From Candidatus Dormiibacterota bacterium (GTDB lineage Bacteria; Chloroflexota; Dormibacteria; Aeolococcales; Aeolococcaceae), in contig DAIUFS010000002.1 of assembly GCA_036844485.1 (NCBI GenBank), positions 11,085 to 75,084 on the forward strand: a stretch of DNA of 64,000 nucleotides, written 5' to 3'. This document shows positions 24,770 to 46,249 of this stretch, in pieces (within the stretch, counting starts at the first letter, position 1; every line of letters starts with the position of its first letter). The position numbers were made by a program, and so were the translations under genes. The notes below the pieces were generated by a model. The model made no database searches. It worked only from the letters and a program-made list of their open reading frames with translations, and was not told the origin of the DNA.

Positions 24770-25699
24770 ATGACGCAGACCATTCGCCGCGGCAGCTTCC
24801 GCAGCCGCGGTCAGCGGCTCGCCTACACCATTCACGGCAGCGGAGATCGCCCGTTCGTCCTCCTGCCCGGCCTTCTGCTCCCGGCTCGGATGAACACGCC
24901 GCTGGCTGCGCACCTCGCCGAGCGCGGGCACCGCGTGATCCTGCTCGATCCGCTCGGCCAGGGGGGCTCTGCCCGCCCGATGGACATGTGGCGGTACTCG
25001 ATGACCCAGTTCGCGCGCGACGTGGTCGCCCTGCTCGACCATCTGAAACTCGACCAGGCGGTGGTGGGCGGAACCTCGCTCGGCGCCAACGTCACCCTGG
25101 AGGTCGCCTCGCTGGCCCCCGAACGGCTCCGCGCCATGGTGGTCGAGATGCCCGTCCTCGACAACGGGTTGGTGGCCAGCGCCATCACCTTTGCGCCGCT
25201 GCTCGTCTGGGTCACTCTGGGATGGCGGCTGATGCAGGTGGTGTCCAGATTGGCGCGGTTGATCCCATCGTCGCGGACGCCCTTCAACATCGACGTCCTT
25301 CTCGACGGGGTGCGGCAGGATCCGGGACCGAGCGGGGCGCTTCTCCAGGGGGTCTTCTTCGGTCGCACCGCCCCGCATCGGGATGAGCGGCGCACCTTCA
25401 CCGCCCCGGCCCTGGTGATCGGCCACCACCGTGACCCGGTTCACCCGTTCTCCGACGCCGGCATGCTGTCCCGGGAGCTCCCCAACGGCCGGCTCATCGA
25501 GGCCAGCTCGATCCTGGAGATGCGGATGCGCCCGGATCGCCTCTATGCCGAGATCGACGCCTTCCTCGACGAGGTGTGGGGTCCGCGGATGCGCGTGGTG
25601 CAGCGCCGGCGGCCCCGCGCCACGACCGCGCGCTCGGCGCGGCGGAGCACACGCCGGCCCGCGGTCGCCACGGCGAGGGCTCGGCGACCGACGTCCTGA
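24770..25699 (+). CDS. alpha/beta hydrolase fold protein with an Arg-rich C-terminal tail
   Basis: RPFVLLPGLL, nucleophile elbow VVGGTSLGA, HRDPVHPF. Start at the ATG at 24770. Confidence 0.8.
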   Translation: MTQTIRRGSFRSRGQRLAYTIHGSGDRPFVLLPGLLLPARMNTPLAAHLAERGHRVILLDPLGQGGSARPMDMWRYSMTQFARDVVALLDHLKLDQAVVGGTSLGANVTLEVASLAPERLRAMVVEMPVLDNGLVASAITFAPLLVWVTLGWRLMQVVSRLARLIPSSRTPFNIDVLLDGVRQDPGPSGALLQGVFFGRTAPHRDERRTFTAPALVIGHHRDPVHPFSDAGMLSRELPNGRLIEASSILEMRMRPDRLYAEIDAFLDEVWGPRMRVVQRRRPRATTARSARRSTRRPAVATARARRPTS

Positions 25700-25743
25700 G
25701 CAACCGTGTTGGGCTGGAACCGGGCCGGTATCCTTCGGCGGTC

Positions 25744-26778
25744 GTGTCCACCCGCGCGCCCGCCGACACCATACCGCCGCGCGGAGAGCGTCCCCGCGTG
25801 CTGAGTGGGATCCAGCCCACCTTCCAGCTCCACCTCGGCAACTACCTCGGCGCGCTGCGCCACTGGGCCCGCGAGCAGGACAGCTACGACAATTTCTTCT
25901 GCATCGTCGACCTCCACGCGCTCACCGTGGTGCCGGACCCCGAGCTGGTGCGGAGCAGCGTGCTCGAATTGGCAGCTCTCTATCTGGCGTGCGGGCTGAA
26001 CCCGGAGAAGAGCGTCATCTTCGTGCAGTCCCACGTCGCCGCGCACACTCAGCTGTGCTGGATCCTCGAGTGCCACACCCCGCTCGGGTGGCTGGAGCGG
26101 ATGACGCAGTTTCGAGCCAAGGCGGGAACCGGACGGGAGCGGGAGCGCGTTGCTGCCGGGCTGCTGACCTATCCGGACCTGATGGCGGCGGACATCCTCC
26201 TCTACGACGCCGACCTGGTTCCGGTCGGTGACGACCAGCGCCAGCACGTCGAGATCTGCCGCGACATCGCCCAGCGGATCAACAGCCTGCGCGGCGAGGT
26301 GTTCCGGCTCCCGCAACCCCTGATTCGCAGCACCGGGGCGCGGGTCATGGGCCTCGACGACCCCACCGCCAAGATGAGCAAGAGCACGGCGCTGGTCAAG
26401 CCGGGCCACGCCATCCTCCTGCTCGACCCGCCGGACACCGTCCGCCGCAAGATCGCCCGCGCTACGACGGACAACAATCCCGCCGTGGCCGAGCCGGTCG
26501 GCGCCGGGGTTGGCAACCTGCTCGACATCCATGCCGCCATCAGCGGCAAGACCAGGGCCGAGACGGTCGCGAACTTCAAGGGTGCGAGTTATGGTGCGCT
26601 TAAGGCCGCCGTGGCGGACGCGATCAACGAGGTGCTTGAACCCGTGCAGCGTCGATATCGCGATGTGCGCGCTGACGAAGCAGCCCTGCGCAGCGTCCTC
26701 GAGCGCGGCGCGGAGCATGCGGCCGCAGTCGCCGGCCCCACCCTGCTGCGCGTGCAGCGTGCGGTGGGACTCCGCTGA
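25744..26778 (+). CDS. trpS: tryptophan--tRNA ligase
   Basis: SGIQPTFQLHLGNYLGAL (HIGH-class motif), GDDQRQHVE, KMSKS. Start uncertain (GTG at 25744 chosen). Confidence 0.9.
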   Translation: MSTRAPADTIPPRGERPRVLSGIQPTFQLHLGNYLGALRHWAREQDSYDNFFCIVDLHALTVVPDPELVRSSVLELAALYLACGLNPEKSVIFVQSHVAAHTQLCWILECHTPLGWLERMTQFRAKAGTGRERERVAAGLLTYPDLMAADILLYDADLVPVGDDQRQHVEICRDIAQRINSLRGEVFRLPQPLIRSTGARVMGLDDPTAKMSKSTALVKPGHAILLLDPPDTVRRKIARATTDNNPAVAEPVGAGVGNLLDIHAAISGKTRAETVANFKGASYGALKAAVADAINEVLEPVQRRYRDVRADEAALRSVLERGAEHAAAVAGPTLLRVQRAVGLR

Positions 26779-27320: not shown

Positions 27321-28457
27321 TCAGCGCCGAGGGGCCAGGGCGGCGTCCACCTCCTCGAGCATGGCGGCCACCTCCGGCCTGGCAAAGTGGGCGCGGGCCG
27401 GCTCGAGGCGGTCGATGAGTCGCGCCGCCAGCGCATTCTTGGCGTCCACCGGGTGCAGCTTGCCGCGACCGTAGGCATCGACGAGCTCCGCGTACGTTTC
27501 GAAGGTGATCGGGCCGCCGTTGGCCGCGCTGCGCTCGACGCGCACCGGGGCGTCGTCGAGGGCGAACACGAGCTGCTCGAACCAGTTGAGCACGGGGTTG
27601 AAGCGCGTTTCGTCAGGGGGGCAGAAGGCCTTGGCGACCCGCCGCCTGATGGTGTCTGGATCATCGTGGATGAACACCGCGGAGGAGGGGTCGGATTTGC
27701 TCATCTTCAATGTCGACGTGTCGACGTCGTCGGGGAGCGGCCACACCGGGGGCTTGCGGAGGCCGAGCAACAGGGGATGGTGCACCGCAGCCGGCTTGAT
27801 GGTGCGTCCCTCGCTGTCGGTCAGCCGGTTGGTTCGGATCTTGGTGGCCACGTCGCGGGCGATGACGTGCGCCTTGCGCTGCTCCGTGCCGGCGTGGGCG
27901 AGGTTGATGCCCTGGGCAAAGATGTCAGCCGCCTGCATCGCCGGATAGATGAGCTTGGCGAAGTCCACCGAGTCGCTCTGATCGCGGCCCAGGATGCTGA
28001 TGCTGCGCAGCATCCGTGCCAGCGTGGTGTGGCGGCTCACCTCGATGACCGTGGCCCAGTAATCGGGGTTGGTCCGGTAGAGGTCGGTGCCGAGCACGAA
28101 GTGCACGCGGGAAGGGTCGGCACCGACCGCCAGCAGCGACGCTCGCATCGCCTCGGTGAAGTAGCCGGTGGCGATGCGCCGGATCACCTCCCGGTCGCCG
28201 CCGAGCTTGTCGTTGATCCAGGTGTGCCAGTCGGCGAGCAGGATATGGCAGTCGATGTCCGCTTCCAGGAAGTCCCGAACCTTGCCCATCGACACCAGCC
28301 CGGTGCCGAGGTGGACCTTGCCGGAGATCTCGAAGCCGATGTAGTGGCGGATGGGTGTCGGAGTGCCGAGCAGCTCGAGCAGCTCGGTGCGTCCCATCAC
28401 CTCAGCGGTGTTGCGCTCGATGAGCGCCATGCGATCGGCGGGACTGAGAGTGGACAT
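27321..28457 (-). CDS. tyrS: tyrosine--tRNA ligase, archaeal/eukaryotic type
   Basis: Collinear with my memory of M. jannaschii TyrRS: LIERNTAEV, HYIGFEISGKVHLGTG, LLADWHTW, IYPAMQAADI, EQRKAHVIARD, KMSKS...FIHDDPDTIRRRVAKAFCPP, LHPVDAKNALA. No bacterial S4-like C-domain. Confidence 0.85.
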   Translation of the reverse strand: MSTLSPADRMALIERNTAEVMGRTELLELLGTPTPIRHYIGFEISGKVHLGTGLVSMGKVRDFLEADIDCHILLADWHTWINDKLGGDREVIRRIATGYFTEAMRASLLAVGADPSRVHFVLGTDLYRTNPDYWATVIEVSRHTTLARMLRSISILGRDQSDSVDFAKLIYPAMQAADIFAQGINLAHAGTEQRKAHVIARDVATKIRTNRLTDSEGRTIKPAAVHHPLLLGLRKPPVWPLPDDVDTSTLKMSKSDPSSAVFIHDDPDTIRRRVAKAFCPPDETRFNPVLNWFEQLVFALDDAPVRVERSAANGGPITFETYAELVDAYGRGKLHPVDAKNALAARLIDRLEPARAHFARPEVAAMLEEVDAALAPRR

Positions 28458-30584: not shown

Positions 30585-31340
30585 ATGATCGACAGAGACA
30601 AGTACGCGGCGGCGGCCATCGTGTCGCGCCGCGACCTCGCCCCCGACCTCTGGGTGGTGCGGATCCGACCGGACTGCGAGCTGCCGTTCCGCCCCGGCCA
30701 GTACGTGACCCTGGGGCTGGAGCTGGACGGCCACATCGTCGAGCGGCCGTACTCGATCGCCTCCGATCCCGCTGAGGATGAGATCGAGCTCTTCATCGAG
30801 CGCGTCCCCGACGGGGAGCTGTCGGCTCCGCTCCACGACGTTCCCATCGGGGACACCACCCTGGTGCGCAAGCGGTGCAAGGGGCTGTTCCTCAAGGATG
30901 CCCCGGTGCTCGACCAGGCGCACGTGTTCGTGGCGACGGTCACGGGCATCGCGCCCTTCGTCAGCATCCTGCGCAGCCTGGCCCGGCGCCAGGCCAGCGG
31001 CGAGTGGGTCGCTGACCAGCCGGTGGTGGCCCTCCAGGGCGCCAGCCGCTCCGAAGAGCTCGGCTACGAGGAGGAGTTGCGCGCGCTGGACGACGCCTGC
31101 GACTGGTTCACGTACGTGCCCACCATCAGTCGCCCCTGGGACGATCCCGAGTGGTCGGGCGAGACCGGCCGCGTCGAGGATGTCCTGCGCAAGCACGCCG
31201 ACCTGGCTGGGCTGCGCCCCGGCCATGGTGCCATCTATCTGTGCGGGAATCCCGAGATGATCGGCAAGGCCCACGGCATCATGCGGCGCCGCGGGTTTGG
31301 CGACAAGGAGATCCGCGAAGAGCAGTACTGGCCGGACTGA
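30585..31340 (+). CDS. ferredoxin--NADP(+) reductase (Fpr-type FAD/NAD(P)-binding oxidoreductase)
   Basis: RPGQYVTLGL, RPYSIAS (FAD motif), TGIAPF, and LCGNPEMI near a C-terminal aromatic residue. Confidence 0.85.
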   Translation: MIDRDKYAAAAIVSRRDLAPDLWVVRIRPDCELPFRPGQYVTLGLELDGHIVERPYSIASDPAEDEIELFIERVPDGELSAPLHDVPIGDTTLVRKRCKGLFLKDAPVLDQAHVFVATVTGIAPFVSILRSLARRQASGEWVADQPVVALQGASRSEELGYEEELRALDDACDWFTYVPTISRPWDDPEWSGETGRVEDVLRKHADLAGLRPGHGAIYLCGNPEMIGKAHGIMRRRGFGDKEIREEQYWPD

Positions 31341-31366: not shown

Positions 31367-32074
31367 CTATTTGAACCCGTAGCGGCCCTCGTGGAAGTCG
31401 CCGGTCTCGACCCACTGGTCGATGACAAGGTCGACCACCGCGTCGTTGACCTCGGAGAGGCCGAGCGTGCGAGCGTTGCCCTCGACCGCTTCGAGCACCT
31501 GCCCGCGAACGAAGTCGGGGATGCGCTCGAAGCGGCTCCGCGCCGAGTCCGTCCACGGCAGCGCGTCGCGGTCACGCTCTTCGATGGCGTGCGACACCCG
31601 GCCCCAGAGCTCGTACTTGACCTCCATCTCGACCGGGGTGATGGTGGTGCCCAGCCCCAGCTTGCGAGCCGTCCATTCGACTCGCCATCGGGTCAGGTCA
31701 CGGCAGAACTCGGGCACCTCCGCCAACCTCGCCTCTGCCTCCGGCGTCCAGCTGAACACCACCTCGGTGCCGGTGCGGTCACTGAGTGGGTGGCCATAGC
31801 CGAGCTTCTTGCCGAGCGTCCGGACGAAGAGGTCGGTGATCTCTTCGACGCGATCGCGCTGGGCACGGGCTTCCACCACCCGTTCGGCCATGCCCGCGGC
31901 GCGCTCCGGGTCGATCCGGCTCACTGCCGCGCGATCGCGTCCCGTCTCAGCCGCGCGGTGGGCGTCCGCGGTCCAGGTGAGGGGCGGGTGGGCGGCGCCG
32001 ACGTGCACCGGACAGCCGGCCTGGTCGGCGTCGTGCACCACCGGGCAGCCAGGCTCGTCTCGCGTTTCGGACAT
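31367..32074 (-). CDS. PCP_red-domain protein (two protochlorophyllide-reductase-B C-terminal-like domains) with an N-terminal double GCPV motif
   Basis: FSWTPEAEARLAEVPEFCRDLTRW... and LPWTDSARSRFERIPDFVRGQVLEAVEGNARTLGL match the W-T-x-E-A...IP-x-F-V-R pattern. The N-terminus has GCPVVH and GCPVHV. Confidence 0.7.
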   Translation of the reverse strand: MSETRDEPGCPVVHDADQAGCPVHVGAAHPPLTWTADAHRAAETGRDRAAVSRIDPERAAGMAERVVEARAQRDRVEEITDLFVRTLGKKLGYGHPLSDRTGTEVVFSWTPEAEARLAEVPEFCRDLTRWRVEWTARKLGLGTTITPVEMEVKYELWGRVSHAIEERDRDALPWTDSARSRFERIPDFVRGQVLEAVEGNARTLGLSEVNDAVVDLVIDQWVETGDFHEGRYGFK

Positions 32075-32255
32075 CGGTCAACCCTCCCACGTGTCGCCGC
32101 GCTCGAGGTGATTCTACGCTGAGGTCGGCGGCGTCCCGACGCGGGCGCTCAGGCCCATGACCCCGCTCGCTATCATCGGACGACGCGGTTGCGAGTGGCG
32201 CTCCGGACCGGTCGCGCGCGGCGGTCGACGTTGCATCTGCCTGGCAGGGGAGCGG

Positions 32256-34325
32256 ATGTACTCCACCCTCTACGTCGCCCTCGACAACTCCGAGCACTCG
32301 GACGCCGCCAGCACGGTCGCCCTGGAGCTCGCCTCCGCCTTCGATGCCCGCGTCATCGGCATGCACGTGTACGCGGCGCGGATGCACGACTACCGGTTCA
32401 AGCAGATGGAGTACACGCTCCCCGAGGAGTACCAGGACGAGGCCGAGCTGCTCCGCCAGCGGCGCATCCACGACAGCCTGATCAGCACCGGCCTGGAGCT
32501 GATCAGCGACAGCTACACCGACGTGCTCCGCTACCGCTGTCTGGAGCGCGACGTGCGCTTCGAGGCGCGCATGCGCGACGGGCGCAACTGGGAGGAGCTG
32601 GTCGCCGACGTCGACGAGAGCAGCGACGTCGACCTGGTGATCATGGGCGCGCTCGGCACCGGCGCGGTCAAGGAGTCGCAGCTGGGCAGCGTCACCGACA
32701 GGGTGGCGCGACGCATCCGGCGCGATCTGCTCATCATCCGCAGCACCGGCGACGCCGCCATGGAGGGCGGCATCCTGGTGGCCGTCGACGGCTCACCGCA
32801 GTCGTTCGCCGGCCTGCGCACCGCCCTCGTCCTCGGCAAAGCGCTCGGCAAGCGCGTCGAGGCGGTGGCCGTCTACGACCCCTACCTGCACTACGCCGTC
32901 TTCAACGGCATCGTCGACGTGCTCTCGGAGAAGGCCTCGAAGATCTTCCGGTTCAAGGAGCAGGAGGCGCTCCACGAGGAGATCATCGACACCGGGCTCG
33001 CCAAGATCTACGAGTCCCACCTCCGCGTGGCCCGTGCCACCGCCGCCGAGGAGGGGGTCGACCTGCCCATCACCCTTCTCGACGGCAAGGCGTTCGAGAG
33101 GATCCTGCGCCACGCTCGCGAGACCCGCCCCTGGCTGCTGGTGCTCGGCCGCATCGGCGTCCACTCGGACGCCGCGATGGACATGGGCAGCAACACCGAG
33201 CAGCTGCTCCGGCTCGCTCCCTGCAACGTTCTGGTCAGCAGTGGCACGTTCACCCCACCCATCGACGTCCGCGCCGACGCCTCGGTGGTGTGGACACCGG
33301 AGGCCGAGGAGCGGATGGCAGCGGTGCCGGGCGGGGCGAGGGGCCTGGCACGGACCGCCGTGCTGCGCTGGGCGATGGAGCGAGGCCACAGCGTGGTCTC
33401 GTCCGGCGACGTGGCCACCGCGCTCGACGAGCTGATGCCGTTCGCACGCACCATGCGCCGCATCGCCGAGACCGCGGCCACCGTCGACTCCGCTCAGCGG
33501 GCCATGGTCGACGAGCCGCAGATCCAGGATGCACGCGCCGTCTGTCGCACCTGCGGGTACGCGGCGAGGAGCGACACCCCGCATCGCTGCCCGGTGTGCG
33601 ACAGCGACGCCGGGGCGTTCGAGCGCCTCGACAGCGACGCGCTCCGGGCCACGGCGGCCGGGGAGGGGGACGCGGCGCAGATCGCTTTTGACGGCGCCAA
33701 GCTGGGCTGGACAGTCGAGGCGCGCCGGCTGCTGCAGCAGCTCCCCGCCGGCTACCTGCGCCGCCGCGTCAAGGCGATCGTCGAGAAGCATGCGCGGACG
33801 CGGCGGCTGCCGGCGATCACCGCCGAGGTGGCCGAGCCGTTCGTGGCGCCCGAGCTCGACGCTCTCGACGTGAATGCCGGGCCGCATCGAGCCCCCTTGG
33901 GCGTCGAGGGGCACACCGGACCGCACGTCGACCAGCGCCGGCGCCTTCCCTGGACCGATGAGGCAGACGACCGCATCGAGCGCATTCCCGCGGGCTTCCT
34001 GCGCAACCTCGCCACCGAGCAGATCGAGCGCCTCGCCGTTGCCCTGGGCGCTCCGGAAGTGGGCGTGCTGCACGTCGAGGCCGGCATCGCTGAGGCGCGC
34101 GCCCGGATGCAGCGCGACGGTGTCGGGGCCGATCCCGCGGCGACCTGTCCCGTCGGGGCCGAGGGGGCGCAGGCTGCACCTGGGTGTCCGGTCCATCACC
34201 AGGCGGAGGGCACGGGGCGTTCCGGCGGTGCGGCGGCACCCCGAGGTGGCTCTCTCAACGAGATAACCGCCCCGGTCATCGACGACCTCGGCAGACGCAC
34301 GACCACGGCGCTGCCAGACGCCTGA
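32256..34325 (+). CDS. multidomain protein: 2 x universal stress protein domain + 3 x PCP_red-like domain + rubredoxin-like zinc ribbon + C-terminal double CPV motif
   Basis: USP motifs: LYVALDNSEHS...VIMGALGTG; ILVAVDGSPQS...LLVLGRIGVHS. PCP_red-like: VVWTPEAEERMAAVP, LGWTVEARRLLQQLPAGYLRRRV, LPWTDEADDRIERIPAGFLRN. Zinc ribbon: CRTCGY..x10..CPVCDS. Start set at the ATG at 32256. Confidence 0.75.
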   Translation: MYSTLYVALDNSEHSDAASTVALELASAFDARVIGMHVYAARMHDYRFKQMEYTLPEEYQDEAELLRQRRIHDSLISTGLELISDSYTDVLRYRCLERDVRFEARMRDGRNWEELVADVDESSDVDLVIMGALGTGAVKESQLGSVTDRVARRIRRDLLIIRSTGDAAMEGGILVAVDGSPQSFAGLRTALVLGKALGKRVEAVAVYDPYLHYAVFNGIVDVLSEKASKIFRFKEQEALHEEIIDTGLAKIYESHLRVARATAAEEGVDLPITLLDGKAFERILRHARETRPWLLVLGRIGVHSDAAMDMGSNTEQLLRLAPCNVLVSSGTFTPPIDVRADASVVWTPEAEERMAAVPGGARGLARTAVLRWAMERGHSVVSSGDVATALDELMPFARTMRRIAETAATVDSAQRAMVDEPQIQDARAVCRTCGYAARSDTPHRCPVCDSDAGAFERLDSDALRATAAGEGDAAQIAFDGAKLGWTVEARRLLQQLPAGYLRRRVKAIVEKHARTRRLPAITAEVAEPFVAPELDALDVNAGPHRAPLGVEGHTGPHVDQRRRLPWTDEADDRIERIPAGFLRNLATEQIERLAVALGAPEVGVLHVEAGIAEARARMQRDGVGADPAATCPVGAEGAQAAPGCPVHHQAEGTGRSGGAAAPRGGSLNEITAPVIDDLGRRTTTALPDA

Positions 34326-34326
34326 C

Positions 34327-35580
34327 ATGCTCGGCCTCCAGGTCACCACGCCCGATTTCCCCGGCATCGGCAACAACGCGTCGGTGGGAATCGTCTTCCT
34401 GGTCCACATTCTCATCGCCGAGTTCAGCCTCGGGGCCATCACTCTGGCGGTGGCGGCGGAGTGGCACCACGTGCGCACCGGCGACGAGCGCACCGCCCGA
34501 TACGCGCGCAGTCTGGCCAACACCTATTACCTGGTCTTCAGCCTGGGTGCCACCTTCGCGGTGTTCGCCGTCGTGCTGCTCACCGGCCTGTGGGCCAACG
34601 AGTTCGGACAGCTGGTCAACAAGTTCGTCTGGCTGGTGGCGTTCGCCTTCAGCCTGTTCTTCGTGCTGGTGCCGCTCCTGGTCTGGTATCGCAATACCTT
34701 CACATCCATGGCTCCGCGCCGTCACGTCCTCCTCGGGACGGCGGTGGGCGTTCTCCAGAGCATGTTCATGGTGCTCATCGTTGGCATCGACGCGTACCTC
34801 ATCAATCCCGTCAACGCCGGGCTCACGGAACCGGCGTTCAACCCGGTGTACTGGCCGCTGCTCATCCACCGTCTCATCGGCAACGTGAGCTGGACCGCGC
34901 TGTTCTGCGCGGCGTACGCGGCTGTCCGGCTGCGCGGAGGTCGCGGTGACGCCCCAGAGCGCGCGTTCCAATCCTGGGCGGCCCGGGTCAACCTGCGCAT
35001 CGGCCTGCTCACCGGCCTGCTCATGCCGATCGTGGGCTTTGCGCTCATCGAGGTGATCCGCCAGAGCGAGCCGGGCTACTTCGACAACCTTCTCAGCGGC
35101 GGGACCGCCGCGTTCATGGTGGCCCAGGAGTGCCTGGTGGGGGTCATGTTCATCGGCGGCAACATCGCCCTGGCCAGCGAGGACGGCGGCCCGCGCGAGT
35201 GGTCGATGGCCAGCCGGGCAGCGATCGCCGTGTCGGTCGCCGGGATGACGCTGGCCGCCCTTCCCAGCGCGGTGCTCGGTGGCGACCTCAACGTGCTGCG
35301 CTACTGGGGGCTGGGCGCCGCCACCGTGGTGACCGCCGCGCACACGCTCTCACGTCTGCGCGGCCGCCGCCGGCGCCAGGACGACTCGCTGCGCGTCACC
35401 GGCTCGGTGTCGCGGATCGGGCGCAACGCGGTGCTCGCCGTCGGCACCGTTGCGGTGGTCACGTCCCTGCTGATGGGCTACATCAAGGAGCACGCCCGCG
35501 GCGACTACGCGGTGTATGGCGAGCTGCGCCAGGTCGACGCTCATCAGCCCTATCAACCCCCGCAGAGCCTCTACCCGTGA
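34327..35580 (+). CDS. cytochrome bd subunit I (CydA)-like membrane protein, paralogue 1, short Q-loop
   Basis: LVHILIAEF (TM1 His), LIHRLIGNV (TM5 His) and C-terminal GYIKEHARGDYAVYGEL (compare the CydA E-GRQPW-x-V-x-G motif). 417 aa, about 9 TM segments. Confidence 0.7.
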   Translation: MLGLQVTTPDFPGIGNNASVGIVFLVHILIAEFSLGAITLAVAAEWHHVRTGDERTARYARSLANTYYLVFSLGATFAVFAVVLLTGLWANEFGQLVNKFVWLVAFAFSLFFVLVPLLVWYRNTFTSMAPRRHVLLGTAVGVLQSMFMVLIVGIDAYLINPVNAGLTEPAFNPVYWPLLIHRLIGNVSWTALFCAAYAAVRLRGGRGDAPERAFQSWAARVNLRIGLLTGLLMPIVGFALIEVIRQSEPGYFDNLLSGGTAAFMVAQECLVGVMFIGGNIALASEDGGPREWSMASRAAIAVSVAGMTLAALPSAVLGGDLNVLRYWGLGAATVVTAAHTLSRLRGRRRRQDDSLRVTGSVSRIGRNAVLAVGTVAVVTSLLMGYIKEHARGDYAVYGELRQVDAHQPYQPPQSLYP

Positions 35581-35834
35581 CCCCGCTGCTGGTCGTCCGA
35601 GCCGCGGAATTCCAGGGCGCCTTGTACTACTCGCTGCTGCTGTTCGTCATCCTCTTTCTCGTCCTGCTGGGCATCGGCTACGCCCTGGTCGGAGTTCGCG
35701 GGCTCTGGCGCAGCGGCGAACGAGGTCCGGCCACAGTTCTCGGCGGAGCCCTCACCGTCGCCTTTCTCGCTCTCGTCGGGATGTACGTCGTCGCCGTCGG
35801 CGGGCTGTTCGCGGCTCCCGGGCTCGGGACGTGA
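35577..35834 (+). CDS. small two/three-TM membrane protein (85 aa), unknown function
   Basis: GTGA overlaps on both ends. Hydrophobic stretches LYYSLLLFVILFLVLLGIGYALV and ALTVAFLALVGMYVVAVGGLF. Confidence 0.5.
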   Translation: MTPLLVVRAAEFQGALYYSLLLFVILFLVLLGIGYALVGVRGLWRSGERGPATVLGGALTVAFLALVGMYVVAVGGLFAAPGLGT

Positions 35835-36339: not shown

Positions 36340-37536
36340 ATGATTGTCAGCCGCTGGCTCACACGACCACTGAAGGCGCGACTGCGCGCGGGGATGGAGT
36401 GGTTCGACGACCGCACCGGAGCCACCGAGCTTCTCCACAAGGGGCTCTATGAGGCAGTCCCCAAGAAGGGTGGCTGGGCGTATGCGCTGGGCAGCGCCAC
36501 CCTGGCGCTGATCCTGCTCCAGCTCTTCAGCGGGATCTTCCTGCTGCTCGACTACGTGCCCTCGGTCACCGACGCCTTCAACAGCCTGGATTACCTGCGC
36601 AGTGGCGACGCCTTCGGCGCCTGGGTGCGCGGGCTCCACCTCTGGGGCTCGTACATGCTCATCTTCGTGATCGGGCTGCACATGCTGCGCACCTTCCTCT
36701 CGGCGAGCTACAAGCGGCCGCGTGAGCTCAACTGGGTGACGGGAGCGCTCCTCTTCTTCCTGGTGCTTGGGCTGGCCATCACCGGCGCGATGCTGCCCTG
36801 GGACGAGGCGGCGTACTGGACGACCACGGTGGTGACCAACATCCCCCACTACCTCCCGGTGATCGGGGACGGCATCCGGACGCTCTGGCGCGGGGGGGAC
36901 TTCGTCGGACCGATCACCCTGACGCGCACCTTCGCCATCCATGTCTGGGTGCTGCCCTTCCTGCTGTTCACCCTCATCGGCGGTCACCTCTACCTTCTCC
37001 GTCGCCACGGCGAGTTCGGTGCCTGGGTCAACTACGACAGCGCTCCCGGCGAGGAAGGGGAGAGGCAGATCGCCGAGCGGATTCGCCGCGCCGAGCCCCC
37101 CTACCCGACCAAGCGGATCTCACGCCGCTACGCGGCGCCGAGCGAGACGGTGCCGTTCTTTCCCGACCAGATCTTCAAGGACGTGGTGTTGAGCACCGCC
37201 CTGGTCGCGGTCATCTTCGTCATGGGACTGATCTCCGGAGCGCCGCTCGACCAGGCCGCCAATCCGGCGACGTTCAGCTACGTGCCCACGCCGGAGTGGT
37301 TCTTCCTCCCCCTCGACCAGTTCATGGTCGTGGCACCGGCCAACCCGCTCATCGCCATTGGGGTCTTCGGCGTTCTCGGCCTGGGCGCAGCCCTGATGGT
37401 GCTCCTGCCGTTCATCGATCGCTCCCCGGAGCGCCGTCCACTGCGCCGCCCTGAGGTGATCGTGCCCGCCCTCTTCATGGCCTTCACGGTGATCTTCTTC
37501 GCTGTTCTCGGCATCAACCGGCTGTACAACCTGTGA
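36340..37536 (+). CDS. cytochrome b (fused b6 + subunit-IV-like) of a Rieske/cyt b complex
   Basis: Two bis-His pairs (HLWGSYMLIFVIGLH; HVWVLPFLLFTLIGGH) and a Qo-site PEWF (PEWY-type) motif. Confidence 0.9.
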   Translation: MIVSRWLTRPLKARLRAGMEWFDDRTGATELLHKGLYEAVPKKGGWAYALGSATLALILLQLFSGIFLLLDYVPSVTDAFNSLDYLRSGDAFGAWVRGLHLWGSYMLIFVIGLHMLRTFLSASYKRPRELNWVTGALLFFLVLGLAITGAMLPWDEAAYWTTTVVTNIPHYLPVIGDGIRTLWRGGDFVGPITLTRTFAIHVWVLPFLLFTLIGGHLYLLRRHGEFGAWVNYDSAPGEEGERQIAERIRRAEPPYPTKRISRRYAAPSETVPFFPDQIFKDVVLSTALVAVIFVMGLISGAPLDQAANPATFSYVPTPEWFFLPLDQFMVVAPANPLIAIGVFGVLGLGAALMVLLPFIDRSPERRPLRRPEVIVPALFMAFTVIFFAVLGINRLYNL

Positions 37537-38978
37537 GCCCGCGCATCCTTCTCTCATCCCTGTCGCCGGTGAGCGGCAACATCGTCACCAACGGCGTCCT
37601 GGTCGCCGTGGTGGCGCTTCTGCACATCCAGATCGCCGCCTTTCTCACCGGATCATCGACGCTGGCGCTGGTCTCCGAAGCGGTTTCGATGGCCCGCGGC
37701 GACGAGCGCCACGGCCGCGTCGCCCACATGCTGGTGAAGGGGCAGGTCTACGTCTTCAGCTTCGGCTCGGCGGTGGCCATCTTCTTCATGATCTTCGTGC
37801 TCCTCGGCCTGTGGGGCATCTTCTGGACCGCCTTGCAGCAGATCGCCTTCTGGGTGCTGGTCTTCGAGGCGGCCATGTTTCTCACCGAGATCGTGCTGCT
37901 GTACAGCCTGTACGCCAACTGGGATCGGCTGCAGGCGCATCGCCGTGCCCGCCTCGCCATGCTGCTCCTGCTCAACATCTCGCTGTGGTGGCAGATGTTC
38001 CTCATCGACGTGGTGGCGTCCTTCATGCTCACGCCCAACGGCGGCGACGTCAGCATCCTCAATCAGATCCTCAACCCCACCAACCTGCCGCTGACCATCC
38101 ATCGCACCATCGGCAACGTCGCCTGGGCGGGCGCGGTGGTCGCCTTCATCGGTGGCTTCAACTACCTGCGTCTCACCAGGCGGCAGCGTGAGCCCACACC
38201 CGACGCTCCGCAGTCGATGCGACCGCTGCGGTCGATCGGCGCCATGGCCGCCGGCCACCTGGAATGGGAGGCACAGCGCACGGAGATTCTCCACTGGGAG
38301 TGGGTGGCGCACTGGGGAGTGATCTGGGCGGTGGCGATGACACTGCTCCAACCATGGGTCGGCTACTCCTACGCCAAGGAGGTCCAGCTCCACGCCTACG
38401 GAGCCTGGTACACGATGATGTTCGGCGACCTCTCCAACGTGTTTCTGCTGCAGATCTTCCTGCTCGGCTCGATCTTCACACTCGGAGCGCTGTACTTCTG
38501 GCGTCGCATGGTGCGCTCCGGTGCCGCGCATGCCCGCCGTCAGCTGATCCTGGCGGTGGCCCTCATCCTCATGACCGTGCTGGCGGTGCAGCCGGCGTGG
38601 TTCGCTCCGACCTACGCGGATGCCATCGCCGCCGCGGGTAACCGGGCATGGTGGGATGGGGGCCTGCTCAACCCCATCGGCGACTTCATCCCCTTCAAGG
38701 CGGCGGCCCTGATCGGCATGGTGCTGTTCGGCCTCTGGTCGGTGACCAGCTATCTGGCGGCGGTGTCGCGCGGCCGGGTCAAGCCCGGCGGCAGCGGCCG
38801 GGGTGCGCAGCGAGCCGCGCTGGTGATCGGCGTGGCGGTGAGCATGATGATGCTGGTCATGGGCGTGATCCGTGAGCATTCACGCCAGCCCTACCTTGTT
38901 TACGGCGAGATCACGCTGCACCAGCAGATCACCAACCACGCGCCGTCGCCGACCTCTCTCCAACAGAGCCAACCGTGA
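37533..38978 (+). CDS. cytochrome bd subunit I (CydA)-like membrane protein, paralogue 2
   Basis: LLHIQIAAF, VFEAAMFLTE, TIHRTIGNV and C-terminal GVIREHSRQPYLVYGEI. Aligns without gaps to paralogue 1 over TM1-TM5. Confidence 0.7.
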   Translation: MSPRILLSSLSPVSGNIVTNGVLVAVVALLHIQIAAFLTGSSTLALVSEAVSMARGDERHGRVAHMLVKGQVYVFSFGSAVAIFFMIFVLLGLWGIFWTALQQIAFWVLVFEAAMFLTEIVLLYSLYANWDRLQAHRRARLAMLLLLNISLWWQMFLIDVVASFMLTPNGGDVSILNQILNPTNLPLTIHRTIGNVAWAGAVVAFIGGFNYLRLTRRQREPTPDAPQSMRPLRSIGAMAAGHLEWEAQRTEILHWEWVAHWGVIWAVAMTLLQPWVGYSYAKEVQLHAYGAWYTMMFGDLSNVFLLQIFLLGSIFTLGALYFWRRMVRSGAAHARRQLILAVALILMTVLAVQPAWFAPTYADAIAAAGNRAWWDGGLLNPIGDFIPFKAAALIGMVLFGLWSVTSYLAAVSRGRVKPGGSGRGAQRAALVIGVAVSMMMLVMGVIREHSRQPYLVYGEITLHQQITNHAPSPTSLQQSQP

Positions 38979-39403
38979 GGATCCCGCTGGGCGCAGTCGC
39001 GCTACGCATTCCCATCTTCCTCTCCGCGCATGAGGAGTTGCGCACAGCCATCGAGCCGCCCTGGCCGCGATGGATGCGTGACCTCTACCAGCTCGAGCAG
39101 GCGCAGGACGAGGGCATCGACGTCGACGCCGAGGAGACCACCGTTCCGGCAGCGCTCGGCGCGCTGTCGTCACGGCTGCGCCAGCGGCTGGAGCTGATCT
39201 CCTCGGTTGCCAGTGGACTGCGGCGCGACGGATGGGCTCTTGACATCGACGGCGACTGTCTGGTGGCCAGCAGGGTGAGCAACCCGCGGCACGCGCTGGA
39301 GATGCTCGAGGACGCGGGACTGGCGGGACCGCTGTGCGCCGTAGCCGACCTCGACGAGTCCGGGTGGCCGCGGCTGTACATCGGTCTGGCGAGCACGGCA
39401 TGA
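38975..39403 (+). CDS. hypothetical protein (142 aa)
   Basis: GTGA overlap upstream and ATGA overlap downstream. No family recognised. Confidence 0.5.
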   Translation: MRIPLGAVALRIPIFLSAHEELRTAIEPPWPRWMRDLYQLEQAQDEGIDVDAEETTVPAALGALSSRLRQRLELISSVASGLRRDGWALDIDGDCLVASRVSNPRHALEMLEDAGLAGPLCAVADLDESGWPRLYIGLASTA

Positions 39404-39771
39404 GCGCCACTGTCCTCATTGCCGAGGACGAACCGATGATCGGGCGGATCCTCGCCGAGAAGCTGACCCGCGAGGGCTATAAGGTGTTGCGGACCGCCAC
39501 CATCGAGGGCTTGATGTCCGCGCTGGCAATCTCTGACGTCGCGCTCGTCGATGCCACTCTCGACGGCGACGGCATCGACGCCATGCAGGGTCTCGCGGCC
39601 GCGGCGATCCATCCCCGCGCCGGCTGGTTCGCCATGGTGGAGAGCCGCGCCGCCGACCAGGGCATCCGTGCGGTTCGCGCCGGCGCCGCGGGGGTGATCA
39701 TCAAGCCGTTCAAGCCGACGGCGGTGGCGGCCAAGGTGGCCACCCTGCTCGCCACGGTGGCGGTGCCGTGA
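39400..39771 (+). CDS. stand-alone response-regulator receiver domain
   Basis: VLIAEDEP (acidic pair), ALVDATLDGDG (acceptor Asp context), VIIKPF (conserved Lys). Confidence 0.8.
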   Translation: MSATVLIAEDEPMIGRILAEKLTREGYKVLRTATIEGLMSALAISDVALVDATLDGDGIDAMQGLAAAAIHPRAGWFAMVESRAADQGIRAVRAGAAGVIIKPFKPTAVAAKVATLLATVAVP

Positions 39772-40742
39772 CCCTGCTCGCCGGCGCCGTCGCGGACGAT
39801 CCCACGGACGAGCACCTGGCCACCGAGGTCGTGCGCGCCCGAGGTGTGCTGCGTCGTTACCGCAATGGCCGTGGGGTGGGCCCGGTGGACCTCTGTCTGC
39901 GGGCCGGCGAGGCGTTCGCTCTGATGGGCCGCAACGGCTCCGGCAAGACCACGCTGCTCCGCCTGCTCGCCACCGTGACGCGTCCGCACAGCGGCGAGCT
40001 GCGCTGGTTCGGCGGCGACGCGACGCGGGCCCGGGCACATCTCGGGCTGGCTCTCGACGCGGCCATGGAGGACGCCGGGCTGACGGGACGGCAGGCGACC
40101 CACTTCTGGTGCGCGCAGTGGATCGCCGATGCGGCGGAGGTGTCGTCCCGCACCGATCTGGTGTTGCGGAGGCTGGGACTGGCCGGGGCCGCCGATGAGC
40201 CCGTCGGCTCGTACTCGTACGGGATGCGCCGCCGCCTCGCCCTTGCCGCCGCCGTTGTCCACGAGCCCGCTCTGGCGCTGCTCGACGAACCCACCGCCGG
40301 GCTCGACCCCGACGGGTGCACCGAGCTGGGCGAGGTGATCGCCGAGCGATCACGGCACGGCCTCAGCACGGTGATCGCCAGCAACGATCCCGGCTTCGTC
40401 GAGGCGGTCGCCGACCGCGTCGCGTTCCTCGAGGAGGGGGCTGTGGTGCGCTGCGCGTCGCCGCGTGACCTGCTCGCCGGCCTCCCCCAGGGACGTGTCG
40501 CGGAGCTTGTCATCGAGGAAGGTTGCTCTTTGGCGGCGCTGCGCGCGGTGCCGGGTGTCGTGGATGTGACCGACGACGGCGGCGCAGCCAGGGTTCGCTT
40601 CGACGGCGACCACACCATCGCCGCCCTGGTTGCGGCGGCCGACGCGCCGGGCGGCCGCCTCCGCGAGCTGCGCCTGCGCCGCCCCGACCTCGCCGACTGC
40701 TTCCATGACCTCACCGGTCGCGCCCTGCGGGAACAGACGTGA
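39768..40742 (+). CDS. ABC transporter ATP-binding protein (ABC-2/DrrA-like)
   Basis: Walker A GRNGSGKTT, signature YSYGMRRRL, Walker B LALLDEPTAGLD. Confidence 0.85.
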   Translation: MTLLAGAVADDPTDEHLATEVVRARGVLRRYRNGRGVGPVDLCLRAGEAFALMGRNGSGKTTLLRLLATVTRPHSGELRWFGGDATRARAHLGLALDAAMEDAGLTGRQATHFWCAQWIADAAEVSSRTDLVLRRLGLAGAADEPVGSYSYGMRRRLALAAAVVHEPALALLDEPTAGLDPDGCTELGEVIAERSRHGLSTVIASNDPGFVEAVADRVAFLEEGAVVRCASPRDLLAGLPQGRVAELVIEEGCSLAALRAVPGVVDVTDDGGAARVRFDGDHTIAALVAAADAPGGRLRELRLRRPDLADCFHDLTGRALREQT

Positions 40743-41497
40743 TCGGAGATGCCGCCGCCCTGCGGGCGACCGCCTGGCGCTCGCGCAGGATGCCGCGCAG
40801 CGTGGCCGCGCGCGAGCTCGCCATCGTGCTCAGCCGGCCACGTGCGCTGGCCATCAAGGCGGGGCTGCCCCTTGCCCTGGCGGTCGTGCTGGTCGCGGGT
40901 CATGCACCGACCTTCTGGGCGGGGATGCTGCTCACCGTCCTGGTCGCCATGGTCGGTGCGGTGGGCACGGCGGTGACGGTGAGCCGGGCCAGGGACGCCG
41001 GTTTTCTGACACGACTGGCAGCAACTCCCGGGTCTCGGCCGCGGTTGCTGGTCGGGTGGGTCCTGGCCGCCGCCGCGGTGGACGTGGTCCAGCTGCTACC
41101 GGTGGCGCTGGCTGCCTGGATCGACGGAGGCGGAGGCGCCACCGAGCTCGTGGTGCTGGTCACCGTTCTCGCCGCCACACTGGTGGTCACCAATGTGCTG
41201 GGCAGTCTCATCACCCTGGCCGCGGCGAGCGCCGCCGAGGTGCTGCTCGATGTCGTCGTCGTGCTCGCGCCCCTTCTCTACCTGGGCGGCCTGTTCACCG
41301 GTGTCCCGGCAGCCGGATGGCGAGCCTGGGTAGCCGCGGTCGACCCGTTCAGCCATCTCCACTCCGCATTCATCGGCGTGCTCGGGGGATCGGCGACGTA
41401 TCCCGGTGGCGTCGATGTGGTCGCGGCGCTGGGAGCGGCAGCGGCGGCGACCGCCGTCCTCGCCGGTCTCAGCCGGCGCATCCTGGAACGTGATTGA
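40739..41497 (+). CDS. ABC-2 type transporter permease
   Basis: Six hydrophobic segments. GTGA overlap with the ATPase gene. Confidence 0.62.
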   Translation: MIGDAAALRATAWRSRRMPRSVAARELAIVLSRPRALAIKAGLPLALAVVLVAGHAPTFWAGMLLTVLVAMVGAVGTAVTVSRARDAGFLTRLAATPGSRPRLLVGWVLAAAAVDVVQLLPVALAAWIDGGGGATELVVLVTVLAATLVVTNVLGSLITLAAASAAEVLLDVVVVLAPLLYLGGLFTGVPAAGWRAWVAAVDPFSHLHSAFIGVLGGSATYPGGVDVVAALGAAAAATAVLAGLSRRILERD

Positions 41498-41498
41498 T

Positions 41499-42161
41499 GT
41501 GCCGCGGCGCGTCCGCCGGGGCGCCGCGCTGCTGGTTGCCATGACCGCGCTGTCCGGTTGTGGGTCTGTGTCCTCCGTCCTCGATGCCGGCGCGCTGGGC
41601 CTGCCGTCGCGCAGCTCACCCGCCGCCCTGGCCACCGCCACCGTGTCGACCAGTCCAGACGGCGGCATCTACCGCAACCCCGACCACCTCGAGGTCATGC
41701 TGGTGGCGCGACACAACGTCGACTCCATCGCCGGCCAGCTCGGATCAGCGTCCTCGACGTGGACGCAGCTGCGCAGCTTCGGCGACTTCACCGTGATCGC
41801 CCTGCGTCTTCGCGATGACGGCAAGGTGAGCTCGGATCCGCAGCTCGCCGACCTGCAGATGGCCAGCGACTACGCCCCCACAGGCACCGCCAGCGGACCG
41901 CTGCGCCACTTCTACCACCCCACCTTTCCGCTGGCGCTGGTCGCCGACTCGAACCCCGGCGACGGCTGCAGCATCCATCTCGATCCCGGCCACAGCGGCG
42001 TCGCCATCCTCATCTACCCGCCGGTCAACCTGCCCAGCACGCTGGTGTGGGGCCGCTTCGGGGACTTCGTGCTCAGCGTGCCCACCGGCGGAGCGCTGCC
42101 GCCGCTGTCGGGCGGGCTGCACGCCGAGGCCTGCACCCGGCCCGCGGCGTCGCCGACGTGA
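41499..42161 (+). CDS. predicted lipoprotein, unknown function
   Basis: Signal peptide with lipobox (RRGAALLVAMTALSGCG). The start could be the GTG at 41490 or at 41499. Confidence 0.6.
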   Translation: MPRRVRRGAALLVAMTALSGCGSVSSVLDAGALGLPSRSSPAALATATVSTSPDGGIYRNPDHLEVMLVARHNVDSIAGQLGSASSTWTQLRSFGDFTVIALRLRDDGKVSSDPQLADLQMASDYAPTGTASGPLRHFYHPTFPLALVADSNPGDGCSIHLDPGHSGVAILIYPPVNLPSTLVWGRFGDFVLSVPTGGALPPLSGGLHAEACTRPAASPT

Positions 42162-42727
42162 GCTCGCGCTCGCGAGCGCGCCGCCGTCAGCGCGTCGAGC
42201 TGCCCAGCGCCGGCCAGACGGTGGTCTCGCTGGTGCTCCACCGCGTGGAGGAGGGTGGCCCCTGGCCGCTGACCCGGGTCCTCACCGCGCTGGGCGGGGA
42301 CGCGGTCGAGCGCATCGGTGTGGCTCGGGCCCTCGGGGATCGCCGCGGTGTGCCGCTGGTGCACTCCCAGGAGGTGCGCTGGCGCGAGCACGCGCTCTTC
42401 CTCGAGGCCCGGCACGGGCGTGACGGTGTCGATGAGCTCAGCCTGGAGATGCCTCCGTGGGACGACCTCGTGGCCACGGTCGCCGATGACGAGGTCTGGC
42501 GGCTCATCGACACCGTCGCGGTCGCCGCCGACGCGCAGTTCGGGTCGATCGGAGACGGCGAGCCGCCTGAGACGGTGCTGCCGGACGACGCCTCGACCCT
42601 CCGCGCCCAGCTGCGACGCCATCTCGCCCTGCTCCTGCCGGAGTGGACGGGGGAGGATGTCGCCGCGGCCGGGGCCACCCCGGCGCGCGTGCTCGACAGC
42701 AGCGGCCTGGTGGTGGTGACCGGGTGA
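42158..42727 (+). CDS. hypothetical protein (189 aa)
   Basis: GTGA overlaps at both ends. Acidic, soluble-looking. No family recognised. Confidence 0.5.
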   Translation: MSSRSRARRRQRVELPSAGQTVVSLVLHRVEEGGPWPLTRVLTALGGDAVERIGVARALGDRRGVPLVHSQEVRWREHALFLEARHGRDGVDELSLEMPPWDDLVATVADDEVWRLIDTVAVAADAQFGSIGDGEPPETVLPDDASTLRAQLRRHLALLLPEWTGEDVAAAGATPARVLDSSGLVVVTG

Positions 42728-43080
42728 GCCTCCACGCCCGCCTGGGGGTTGCGGTGTTGCTTGTGGCAGCGGTGGGAGCCCTCCTCGCTCTGCTCGCGCG
42801 CAACCGTCCGGGTGCCGTTCCCACCGTGCGTGTCTTCGTCAGGCTCTGCGCCGCCGCCGCCGCCGTGGAGGCGTTCATCGGGCTGGCCATGGTGGTCGCC
42901 GGCCAGCGCCCCGCCGAGGCCATCCACTTCTTCTACGGCGCGGCGACCGCCATCCCCATCCCCGCCGCCGACCTGCTGGCACGCCGCGTCCACCCGCAGT
43001 CGGAGATGCTCTACCTGCTCGCCGGGGCAGTCGCCACCGTGCTGTTCGGTCTTCGCGCCGTGGCCACAGGCAGCTCGTAA
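42724..43080 (+). CDS. small four-TM membrane protein (118 aa)
   Basis: The GTGA overlap makes it the last gene of the chain. Hydrophobic profile. Confidence 0.5.
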   Translation: MSLHARLGVAVLLVAAVGALLALLARNRPGAVPTVRVFVRLCAAAAAVEAFIGLAMVVAGQRPAEAIHFFYGAATAIPIPAADLLARRVHPQSEMLYLLAGAVATVLFGLRAVATGSS

Positions 43081-46246: not shown

Positions 46247-46249
46247 CCG

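Follow-up and report, generated by a model that had tools for sequence, protein, structure and literature searches.

A split USP–PCP_red protein at the head of an OR-N5-like oxidase operon in a Dormibacterota genome

Results

Gene organization of the locus

The stretch of DNA analysed here, referred to as the window, comprises 64,000 nucleotides of a Candidatus Dormiibacterota bacterium (GenBank assembly GCA_036844485.1, contig DAIUFS010000002.1, positions 11,085 to 75,084), and coordinates given without a locus name count from its first letter. It contains a divergent pair of genes for proteins with repeated PCP_red (PF08369) domains, the larger of which also carries two universal stress protein (USP) domains. 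The two genes encode split, inverted halves of one conserved soluble protein; the gene for the large protein heads a conserved operon, and the protein is genetically tied to operons for bd-like oxidases of the OR-N type. The pair is laid out as follows:

31367 to 32074, minus strand: small-protein gene, an open reading frame (ORF) for 235 aa; soluble, equivalent to the C-terminal third of fused homologues
32075 to 32255, no strand: divergent intergenic region between both halves, 181 bp, as read from the sequence
32256 to 34325, plus strand: large-protein gene, an ORF for 689 aa; soluble, with two USP domains, PCP_red, a four-Cys ribbon, two further PCP_red, a Cys-Pro (CP) linker and a short tail

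Third-position GC bias is strong in both genes. The longest plus-strand ORF begins at 32157, and the start of the large protein was set at 32256 because all homologues begin with MYSTLYV, which is encoded from that position. A scan of the intergenic region found no sigma-70-like promoter and no terminator-like site. Since a hydropathy scan detected no hydrophobic segment in either protein, both are probably cytoplasmic.

Database names of the proteins are ‘universal stress protein’ and ‘PCP reductase family protein’. NCBIfam held no specific model for the small protein, the large protein, the CydA-like proteins of the adjoining operon or the operon genes without assignment, and a search of a literature library on PCP_red/PF08369 and its link with USP, Rieske and bd-like proteins returned nothing relevant. 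The closest relatives of the large protein occur in metagenome-assembled genomes (MAGs) of Candidatus Dormibacteria, and more distant ones, with 50–55% identity, in Ktedonobacterales, Limnocylindrales, Planctomycetota and an ‘Angelobacter’ Acidobacteriota MAG. In a collection with one genome per species, relatives are encoded in at least 594 matched stretches.

Domain composition of the two proteins

The modules of the large protein (first eight lines) and the small protein (last four lines) are:

32256 to 32741, plus strand: USP domain 1 (Pfam, residues 1–162), with an ATP-binding-type motif and a very conserved helical insert
32763 to 33248, plus strand: USP domain 2 (Pfam), with an ATP-binding-type motif
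33282 to 33449, plus strand: PCP_red module 1, residues 343–398 (Pfam and family-specific hidden Markov model, HMM)
33543 to 33599, plus strand: four-Cys ribbon CxxC-x11-CxxC, rubredoxin-like (C430, C433, C445, C448)
33699 to 33872, plus strand: PCP_red module 2, residues 482–539 (Pfam and family-specific HMM)
33945 to 34112, plus strand: PCP_red module 3, residues 564–619 (Pfam and family-specific HMM)
34143 to 34199, plus strand: paired motifs TCPVGA-x7-GCPVHH, residues 630–648, in the linker/tail
34254 to 34298, plus strand: tail peptide LNEITAPVIDDLGRR
32000 to 32050, minus strand: paired motifs GCPVVH-x5-GCPVHV, residues 9–25, in a low-confidence N-terminal tail
31802 to 31981, minus strand: cryptic, degenerate PCP_red-like module, residues 32–91, followed by a near-invariant LGKKLGYGHP segment
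31580 to 31756, minus strand: PCP_red module 4, residues 107–165, with an invariant FCRxxxRWRVEW motif
31385 to 31564, minus strand: PCP_red module 5, residues 171–230, with a near-invariant GDFHEGxYGF at its end

In the Pfam scan the large protein matched Usp (PF00582) in two stretches (130.1 bits; gathering score 24 bits) and PCP_red in three (79.7 bits), and the small protein matched PCP_red in two (57 bits; gathering score 32.5 bits). An earlier sequence-only reading, made without database searches, had named exactly these domains and proposed profiles PF08369 and PF00582 as the check; both score above their gathering scores. That reading gave the ribbon an x13 spacer, where x11 is found, and the cryptic module is an addition to its two PCP_red copies in the small protein.

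Both USP domains contain a predicted ATP motif, G131-x2-G134-x9-G144-S145 in the first (32646–32690) and G298-x2-G301-x9-G311-S312 in the second (33147–33191), and in an alignment of 18 sequences from several phyla both copies of this G-x2-G-x9-G-S nucleotide motif are invariant, as are all four ribbon cysteines. With a fused homologue as the query, Foldseek matched the tandem-USP fold to Rv2623 (3cis; E 1e-14) and to ATP-bound TTHA0350 (3ab8), with template modelling (TM) scores of 0.82–0.84 against 3ab7/3ab8 when normalised by target length; phmmer likewise matched 2jax and 3cis. Of the functional assignments made here, ATP binding by the two USP domains, to which these motifs and folds point, is the one in which we have most confidence. 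Each USP domain also holds a long helical insert that is nearly invariant across phyla (residues ~37–95 and 206–256, within 32256–33250), and these inserts, HVYAARMHDYRFKQMEYTLPEEYQDE... and VYDPYLHYAVFN...FKEQEALHEEIIDTGLAKIY, are the most conserved parts of the large protein.

An AlphaFold2 model of the small protein (predicted local distance difference test score, pLDDT, 88.5; predicted TM score, pTM, 0.80) contains three PCP_red-like units, at residues 32–91, 107–165 and 171–230. The first of these, the cryptic module, matched the family-specific PCP_red HMM weakly (independent E-value 4.5e-4, 8.4 bits) and is modelled with the same strand-helix-helix-strand-helix order as the other modules. 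Across phyla, the invariant or near-invariant elements of this half are LGKKLGYGHP, FCRxxxRWRVEW and the C-terminal GDFHEGxYGF. Foldseek matches of the small protein to histone folds and RuvBL (E at least 0.24) were set aside as noise.

The sole characterised home of PCP_red is the C-terminus of BchB/ChlB, and sequence matches of the domain are 2ynm_D, 2kru and 2l09. This raises the alternative that the pair is a remnant or relative of the light-independent protochlorophyllide reductase with a role in chlorophyll metabolism, which would account for PCP_red matches above the gathering score and for weak local matches to BchB models. The BchB equivalog models, however, reached 39–49 bits against cut-offs of 490–912 (490–509 for TIGR01278 / NF002789) and did so over their last ~50–70 positions alone, no nitrogenase-like catalytic domain was found in the pair with Pfam, and no BchL, BchN or BchB core was seen among the window genes examined. 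The family is furthermore present in many MAGs of phyla not known to be phototrophic. With the terminal domain alone matching, we excluded such an origin and give it hardly any probability.

The gene pair corresponds to one fused protein

In other phyla the two halves form a single polypeptide of ~840–890 aa with the order USP-USP, PCP_red, ribbon, two PCP_red, CP linker, cryptic module and two PCP_red. Among the 120 homologues listed, 27 are 820–900 aa long, and five PCP_red domains were present in every one of the six scanned homologues of this length. BLASTP aligned residues 9–235 of the small protein with residues 655–893 of the fused homologue P0110 (893 aa), which are the last 239 residues of that protein, at 49% identity (E 9e-70) and with both CP motifs of the small protein in register; identity to a second fused homologue, P0051, was 48%. 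The two window halves are collinear with one polypeptide elsewhere, share no overlapping domain and are encoded by adjacent genes.

In alignment A1 (columns 770–800), the tail of the large protein, with its CP motifs and LNEITAPVIDDLGRR, is the same linker piece as that of the small protein, with its CP motifs and VEEITDLFVRTLGKK. The linker is thus retained on both sides of the split, and this explains the motif common to both proteins as part of the linker of a presumably once-continuous protein. The sequence-only reading had seen both proteins as ending in this shared element, which holds for the N-terminus of the small protein, whereas in the large protein the motifs lie ~40 residues before the C-terminus.

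In the AlphaFold2 model of fused P0110 (mean pLDDT 85, pTM 0.53), a tandem-USP body is joined by a small sheet at the ribbon and by six strand-helix-helix-strand-helix repeats, five of them being the Pfam PCP_red domains and the sixth the cryptic one directly after the linker. The fused form was found in MAGs labelled Ktedonobacterales, other Chloroflexota, Acidobacteriota, Eisenbacteria, Binatus and Latescibacterota, and also in a few labelled Dormibacterota or Actinomycetes. The split divergent form occurs in MAGs labelled Dormibacterota, Chloroflexi/Chloroflexia and uncultured Actinomycetes, all with at least 67% identity to the window protein. This split/fused relationship is evidence that both window proteins work together, and the small and the large protein therefore likely act together.

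A conserved link to an OR-N5-like oxidase operon

The genes around the pair that bear on its function are:

30585 to 31340, plus strand: Fpr-like FAD/NAD(P) reductase (Pfam FAD_binding_6 and NAD_binding_1), 26 nt from the small-protein gene
34327 to 35580, plus strand: CydA-like membrane protein (OR-N5a-like), 417 aa; PF01654 at 40.6 bits, ~9 hydrophobic segments
35577 to 35834, plus strand: small two-helix membrane protein, 85 aa, with counterparts of 78–90 aa in L001 and L003
35831 to 36328, plus strand: Rieske [2Fe-2S] protein (PF00355)
36340 to 37536, plus strand: cytochrome b (PF00033, PF13631)
37533 to 38978, plus strand: second CydA-like membrane protein (OR-N5b-like), 481 aa; PF01654 in the L001/L003 orthologues, synteny by tblastn
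38975 to 43080, plus strand: operon tail, with a 142-aa protein, a receiver, an ATP-binding cassette (ABC) ATPase, an ABC-2 permease and three proteins without assignment

The first CydA-like gene starts 1 nt past the stop of the large-protein gene, and the ends of the downstream genes overlap or abut. The window copy of the second CydA-like protein had no Pfam match. In the tail, the ABC ATPase is DrrA-like, the receiver domain stands alone, and the last three genes encode a lipoprotein-like protein, a soluble protein and a four-helix membrane protein.

The gene order from the USP-PCP_red gene to the ABC-2 permease recurs in more than 20 Dormibacterota loci with the split form and in the ‘Angelobacter’ Acidobacteriota MAG (L003) with the fused form, and the order of the operon tail is likewise kept in L003 and the Dormibacterota loci. 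The fused form of MAGs labelled Chloroflexota, Eisenbacteria, Binatus, Dormibacterota or Actinomycetes differs in that both ABC genes have moved directly after the USP-PCP_red gene, ahead of the first CydA-like gene; in Ktedonobacterales loci the ABC ATPase gene follows it directly, and the ABC-2 permease gene comes next where identifiable. The tie to the adjacent respiratory module that had been suspected from the window is in this way supported by synteny in several phyla. A metagenome search that started from the CydA-like side placed the USP-PCP_red gene, fused and in fixed order, in all 35 loci whose upstream sequence extended over 4.5 kb or more; these loci belong to one clade, the best-matching segment being 56–100% identical to the query, and the count is therefore no test of distant OR-N5 operons.

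In the published OR-N5a/b bd-like reductases, two CydA-like genes flank genes for a Rieske (petA-like) and a cytochrome b (petB/petD-like) protein (bioRxiv 10.1101/2021.01.16.426971). The window operon contains this complete set, two CydA-like genes with petA and petB/petD, and matches an OR-N5-like operon, as judged by gene order and protein size and not by phylogeny. OR-N5 proteins are further defined by CydA-like sequences that fall in the N5a/N5b clades, ~10 helices and the lack of a Q-loop; a crude hydropathy scan of the 417- and 481-aa CydA-like proteins gave ~9–10 hydrophobic segments, and conserved His residues were seen in alignment A4. OR-N bd-like oxidases were listed among the biochemically uncharacterised diversity of the bd family, and the terms ‘universal stress’ and ‘protochlorophyllide’ are absent from the main text and supplements of that study by Murali, Gennis and Hemp (bioRxiv 10.1101/2021.01.16.426971). 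Taken with the split/fused relationship, the conserved gene order suggests that both halves act together with the membrane complex or its ABC transporter, which we regard with less confidence than ATP binding.

The Fpr-like reductase adjoins the pair, as the sequence-only reading had pointed out in proposing it as a partner, and lies outside the conserved unit: it occurs upstream in 4 of ~22 split-type loci (L005, L008, L019, L030) and in no non-Dormibacterota locus, and was ruled out by synteny as a conserved partner. An S51 peptidase gene upstream is similarly restricted to four close relatives. These data bear on the idea that the protein is a cytoplasmic electron carrier, in which iron, bound by the ribbon as in the rubredoxin-like domain of rubrerythrin, would take electrons from NAD(P)H via the Fpr-like reductase and hand them to the cytochrome b / bd-like complex on its cytoplasmic side. 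In favour of this idea, the CxxCG...CPxC knuckles are invariant, the reductase gene lies only 26 nt from the small gene, and the rubredoxin-like family RUBY_RBDX (PF21349) scored 27–38 bits in homologues (P0075, P0101, P0080, P0104 with 32.8, P0412 with 38.1, P0379), against a cut-off of 26.5. The window protein itself remained under this cut-off (21.5 bits), P0119 and P0391 had no ribbon match, and zinc and iron cannot be discriminated from sequence. A single one-electron centre in a 689-aa protein with two ATP-binding-type domains would also make an odd carrier. Because the Fpr-like neighbour is not conserved, an electron-carrier role appears weak, and we consider it very improbable.

Cys-Pro motifs in the linker

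The two window proteins contain four CP motifs, all with the sequence C-P-V, that is, a Cys-Pro core followed by a hydrophobic residue. The motif pairs GCPVVH/GCPVHV and TCPVGA/GCPVHH had both been recognised from the sequence, each with an x8 spacer, which is corrected here to x5 in the small (32000–32050) and x7 in the large protein (34143–34199). Two of the three cysteines in the small protein belong to these motifs. Both motifs were present in 96 of 120 stand-alone homologues of the small protein, within an otherwise variable N-terminal stretch, and conservation of C10 and P11 reaches 90% or more in an alignment of 89 sequences.

In stand-alone small proteins (n=103 sequences), motif 1 reads [R 61% / G 26%]-C-P-[V/F/Y]-[P/A]-H, with the His in 84%; R or K precedes the Cys in 65% and G in 26%, and the residue after Pro is V, F or Y in 102 of 103 copies. 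Motif 2 is G-C-P-V, and the Cys-to-Cys spacing is most commonly 11 (range 10–32). The linker motif of large proteins is mostly G-C-P-V-H, with zero to two copies among homologues. In AlphaFold2 models the motifs lie in predicted disordered segments: residues 646–686 of P0110, which make up the CP linker, have a pLDDT below 50, and residues 1–30 of the small protein have block-mean values of 55–68.

Haem-regulatory motifs consist of a Cys-Pro core, often with a basic residue before and a hydrophobic residue after it (PMC4127239). The Hap1 consensus is K/R-C-P-V/I (PMC9491583), and the Irr motif, G-C-P-W-H-D, has a G before Cys (PMC11442138). By their sequence the CP motifs of the family conform to this definition, so the resemblance to haem-regulatory motifs noticed earlier extends to the family consensus, and the motifs can be described as conserved, predicted to be disordered and haem-motif-like.

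PCP_red domains in other contexts

Every one of the 10 long matches scanned from the full-library search was a tandem USP with two to six PCP_red domains. The family also includes three-PCP_red paralogues of 630–680 aa, some of them in unrelated neighbourhoods. A second, three-PCP_red paralogue in Dormibacterota MAGs, of ~640 aa and located beside arginine-biosynthesis genes with no respiratory genes nearby, often has one R/K-C-P-V-x-H in its tail; three-PCP_red coordinates are 10001–11926 in L085 and 877–2853 in L086. A Planctomycetota three-PCP_red homologue is similarly isolated.

At least 14 Poribacteria loci, and one unclassified MAG, have a three-PCP_red USP gene followed by a cassette for a Mrp/NUBPL-type (Fe-S) ATPase, a small ribbon-plus-PCP_red protein, a CopD-like membrane protein and a radical S-adenosylmethionine (SAM)/SPASM protein with a C-terminal PCP_red domain; a tandem USP also belongs to the cassette, and sometimes a HEAT / phycobilin-lyase-like protein (L055 13948–20843; L033 12219–15713; L060–L084; L063; L072; L083). 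The homologue that leads the cassette has the form USP-USP, PCP_red, ribbon, two PCP_red. A TA06 locus and two Methylomirabilota loci also contain the Mrp-type ATPase and small PCP_red protein genes of the cassette, at least.

The best curated match of the Poribacteria radical-SAM/PCP_red protein is the haem b synthase AhbD (TIGR04545), with 332 bits over the whole model against a cut-off of 500, and NirJ2 is second best; fusions of radical SAM and PCP_red are also common in Brocadiales. The tetrapyrrole link that had been suggested for PCP_red gains indirect support through these AhbD/NirJ-like fusions. They suggest that the PCP_red repeats may handle a tetrapyrrole, which we hold with less confidence than ATP binding by the USP domains and the joint action of the halves, and with more than haem binding by the CP motifs.

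In at least four lineages, represented by Poribacteria, Methylomirabilota, TA06 and another MAG, the small ribbon-plus-PCP_red protein of the cassette (L055 16730–17290; homologues in L033, L063, L072 and L083) carries a conserved (K/G)-C-P-F-(T/S) ~20 residues ahead of its PCP_red domain. To judge from these sequences, this is an independent recurrence of a CP motif beside PCP_red in an unrelated protein.

A fused five-PCP_red gene also ends an operon of the Latescibacterota MAG L046 (4700–12643), together with genes for a cytochrome c', a 690-aa CydA-like protein, a cytochrome c and a cytochrome c with EB_dh; a radical-SAM/PCP_red homologue is encoded 3.5 kb downstream. This operon fits the published OR-N2 type and not OR-N5 (bioRxiv 10.1101/2021.01.16.426971).

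Other features of the window

Just past the end of the oxidase operon begins the region of a minus-strand operon (43087–49034) for two proteins without assignment, a Diphthami_syn_2-like protein, CbiQ, a double ABC ATPase and an energy-coupling factor (ECF) S-component. It is preceded by a cobalamin riboswitch (RF00174, 98.5 bits; 49106–49305, minus strand) and has the appearance of an ECF uptake system under B12 control. Two class-I Trp/Tyr-type tRNA synthetase paralogues are located at 25576–26778 (plus strand) and 27321–28457 (minus strand), less than 600 bp apart and on opposite strands (PF00579, 237 and 135 bits).

Discussion

The gene pair described here confirms what the sequence-only reading had observed and supports its interpretation in part. 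We propose, at roughly even chances, that the split protein is an ATP-binding, probably haem-responsive, dedicated accessory of OR-N-type bd-like oxidase operons. The two USP domains would bind ATP and report the energy state, and the PCP_red repeats would transiently bind haem or another tetrapyrrole, with help from the CP motifs in some lineages. An ATP-reporting USP part combined with haem-binding PCP_red repeats and CP motifs could couple haem availability and energy state to the assembly, in the sense of haem loading, or to the activity of the multi-haem membrane complex, and the co-encoded ABC transporter may also be controlled.

Several observations weigh against this proposal. The CP motifs, conserved as they are in most stand-alone small proteins, are missing in many orthologues from the same operon type, such as the fused proteins of L042, L047, L050, L052, L054, L064 and L065, and also in the Poribacteria homologues of the large protein; because of the former, they cannot be the core function of the family, and haem sensing through them can only be a lineage-specific add-on. 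Haem binding by the CP motifs, which may add a sensing layer in some lineages, is of all the functions assigned here the one in which we have least confidence. The window motifs have G, G, T and G, none of them basic, in front of the Cys, and no CP motif was found near the PCP_red domain of the radical-SAM/PCP_red fusions. Pigment binding by PCP_red, as reported from crystal structures, concerns protochlorophyllide reductase, and Foldseek matches of the small protein in the PDB were to PCP_red structures alone, at E 0.06. Three-PCP_red paralogues without respiratory neighbours exist beside arginine-biosynthesis genes (L085) and aminotransferase genes (L086). Finally, fission with inversion is favoured as the origin of the split, with its direction read from the distribution of the two forms alone.

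The main rival is a pure energy or stress regulator that binds no haem: an ATP-sensing tandem USP, similar to Rv2623 or TeaD, would throttle the oxidase or the ABC transporter, the PCP_red repeats would be docking modules, and the CP cysteines would form a thiol redox switch or a Zn/Cu site. In line with such a regulator, conservation within the protein is highest in the tandem-USP fold and both ATP motifs, the CP motifs are dispensable in many orthologues, and the PCP_red copy number varies from two to six, as expected of a scaffold. USPs encoded beside transporters include known regulators, with TeaD among the fold matches as 3hgm, and Rv2623 reportedly interacts with the Rv1747 ABC transporter; in fused-type operons the ABC ATPase gene lies directly after the USP-PCP_red gene, followed by the ABC-2 permease gene where identifiable. 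What a regulator of this kind leaves unexplained is that PCP_red is otherwise at home only in two tetrapyrrole enzymes, BchB and the AhbD/NirJ-like proteins, that the CP motifs match the haem-regulatory consensus down to the hydrophobic residue and the His, and that a CP motif stands just before PCP_red in an unrelated small protein. We consider a haem-independent regulator possible but on balance doubtful.

A haem-responsive accessory of the oxidase could also be viewed more broadly, with PCP_red as a general tetrapyrrole module and the USP-PCP_red protein as a cytoplasmic, ATP-controlled haem chaperone or sensor, by which haem is delivered to OR-N oxidases or its supply to them is gated, in some phyla together with an AhbD/NirJ-like radical-SAM/PCP_red enzyme. 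This extension is speculative, and we would rate it as unlikely. If it were true, a bd-type oxidase would, as far as we know, have a dedicated subunit for haem loading or haem sensing assigned to it for the first time, and PCP_red its first assigned function outside chlorophyll synthesis.

Placed at the start of an unusual, uncharacterised oxidase operon, the pair is a testable candidate for haem sensing or haem handling, and a conserved soluble partner offers a clonable handle on OR-N oxidases and on haem delivery to bd-type oxidases, a process that to our knowledge is poorly understood. PCP_red, for which we know of no assigned function outside protochlorophyllide reductase, gains a testable role. 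Members of the family are common among uncultured phyla from soil and sponges (such as Dormibacterota, Chloroflexota, Poribacteria and Methylomirabilota), lineages whose respiration is mostly inferred from genomes.

Parts of the protein resemble well-known systems. The C-terminal PCP_red of BchB/ChlB and the structures 2kru and 2l09 represent the same small helical domain by Pfam, by sequence and as top Foldseek matches. Unlike BchB/ChlB, the window proteins have no nitrogenase-like core, PCP_red is repeated two to six times in the family and attached to USP, and the context is respiratory instead of chlorophyll synthesis. Rv2623 and TTHA0350 are tandem USPs with G-x2-G-x9-G-S/T in both domains, like the large protein, which adds a near-invariant helical insert to each USP domain, and the family continues for 350–550 residues with PCP_red repeats, ribbon and CP linker. 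TeaD (3hgm), which regulates the tripartite ATP-independent periplasmic (TRAP) transporter TeaABC, is a USP encoded in the operon of a membrane complex and, with a structural likeness at the level of one domain, provides an analogy for an ATP-dependent regulator; it is, however, a single-domain USP without extra modules, and its partner is a transporter and not an oxidase.

With Irr and Hap1 the family shares the Cys-Pro core, the hydrophobic residue, the nearby His, often an R before Cys, multiple copies and a location in flexible segments, whereas the host protein here is not a transcription factor, and its motifs are lost in many orthologues and known from sequence alone. The ribbon has the same CxxCG...CPxC(G) knuckles and short spacer as the rubredoxin-like domain of rubrerythrin (PF21349), but the large protein has no di-iron domain and the window score stays under the cut-off. 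The OR-N5a/b operons of Murali, Gennis and Hemp show the same arrangement, with Rieske and cytochrome b genes enclosed by two CydA-like genes. Known kinds among these features are USP accessory proteins and haem-regulatory motifs; new are the combination of USP domains, CP motifs and PCP_red repeats in one protein, its fixed link to OR-N oxidases and the recurrent neighbourhood of PCP_red and AhbD/NirJ-like enzymes.

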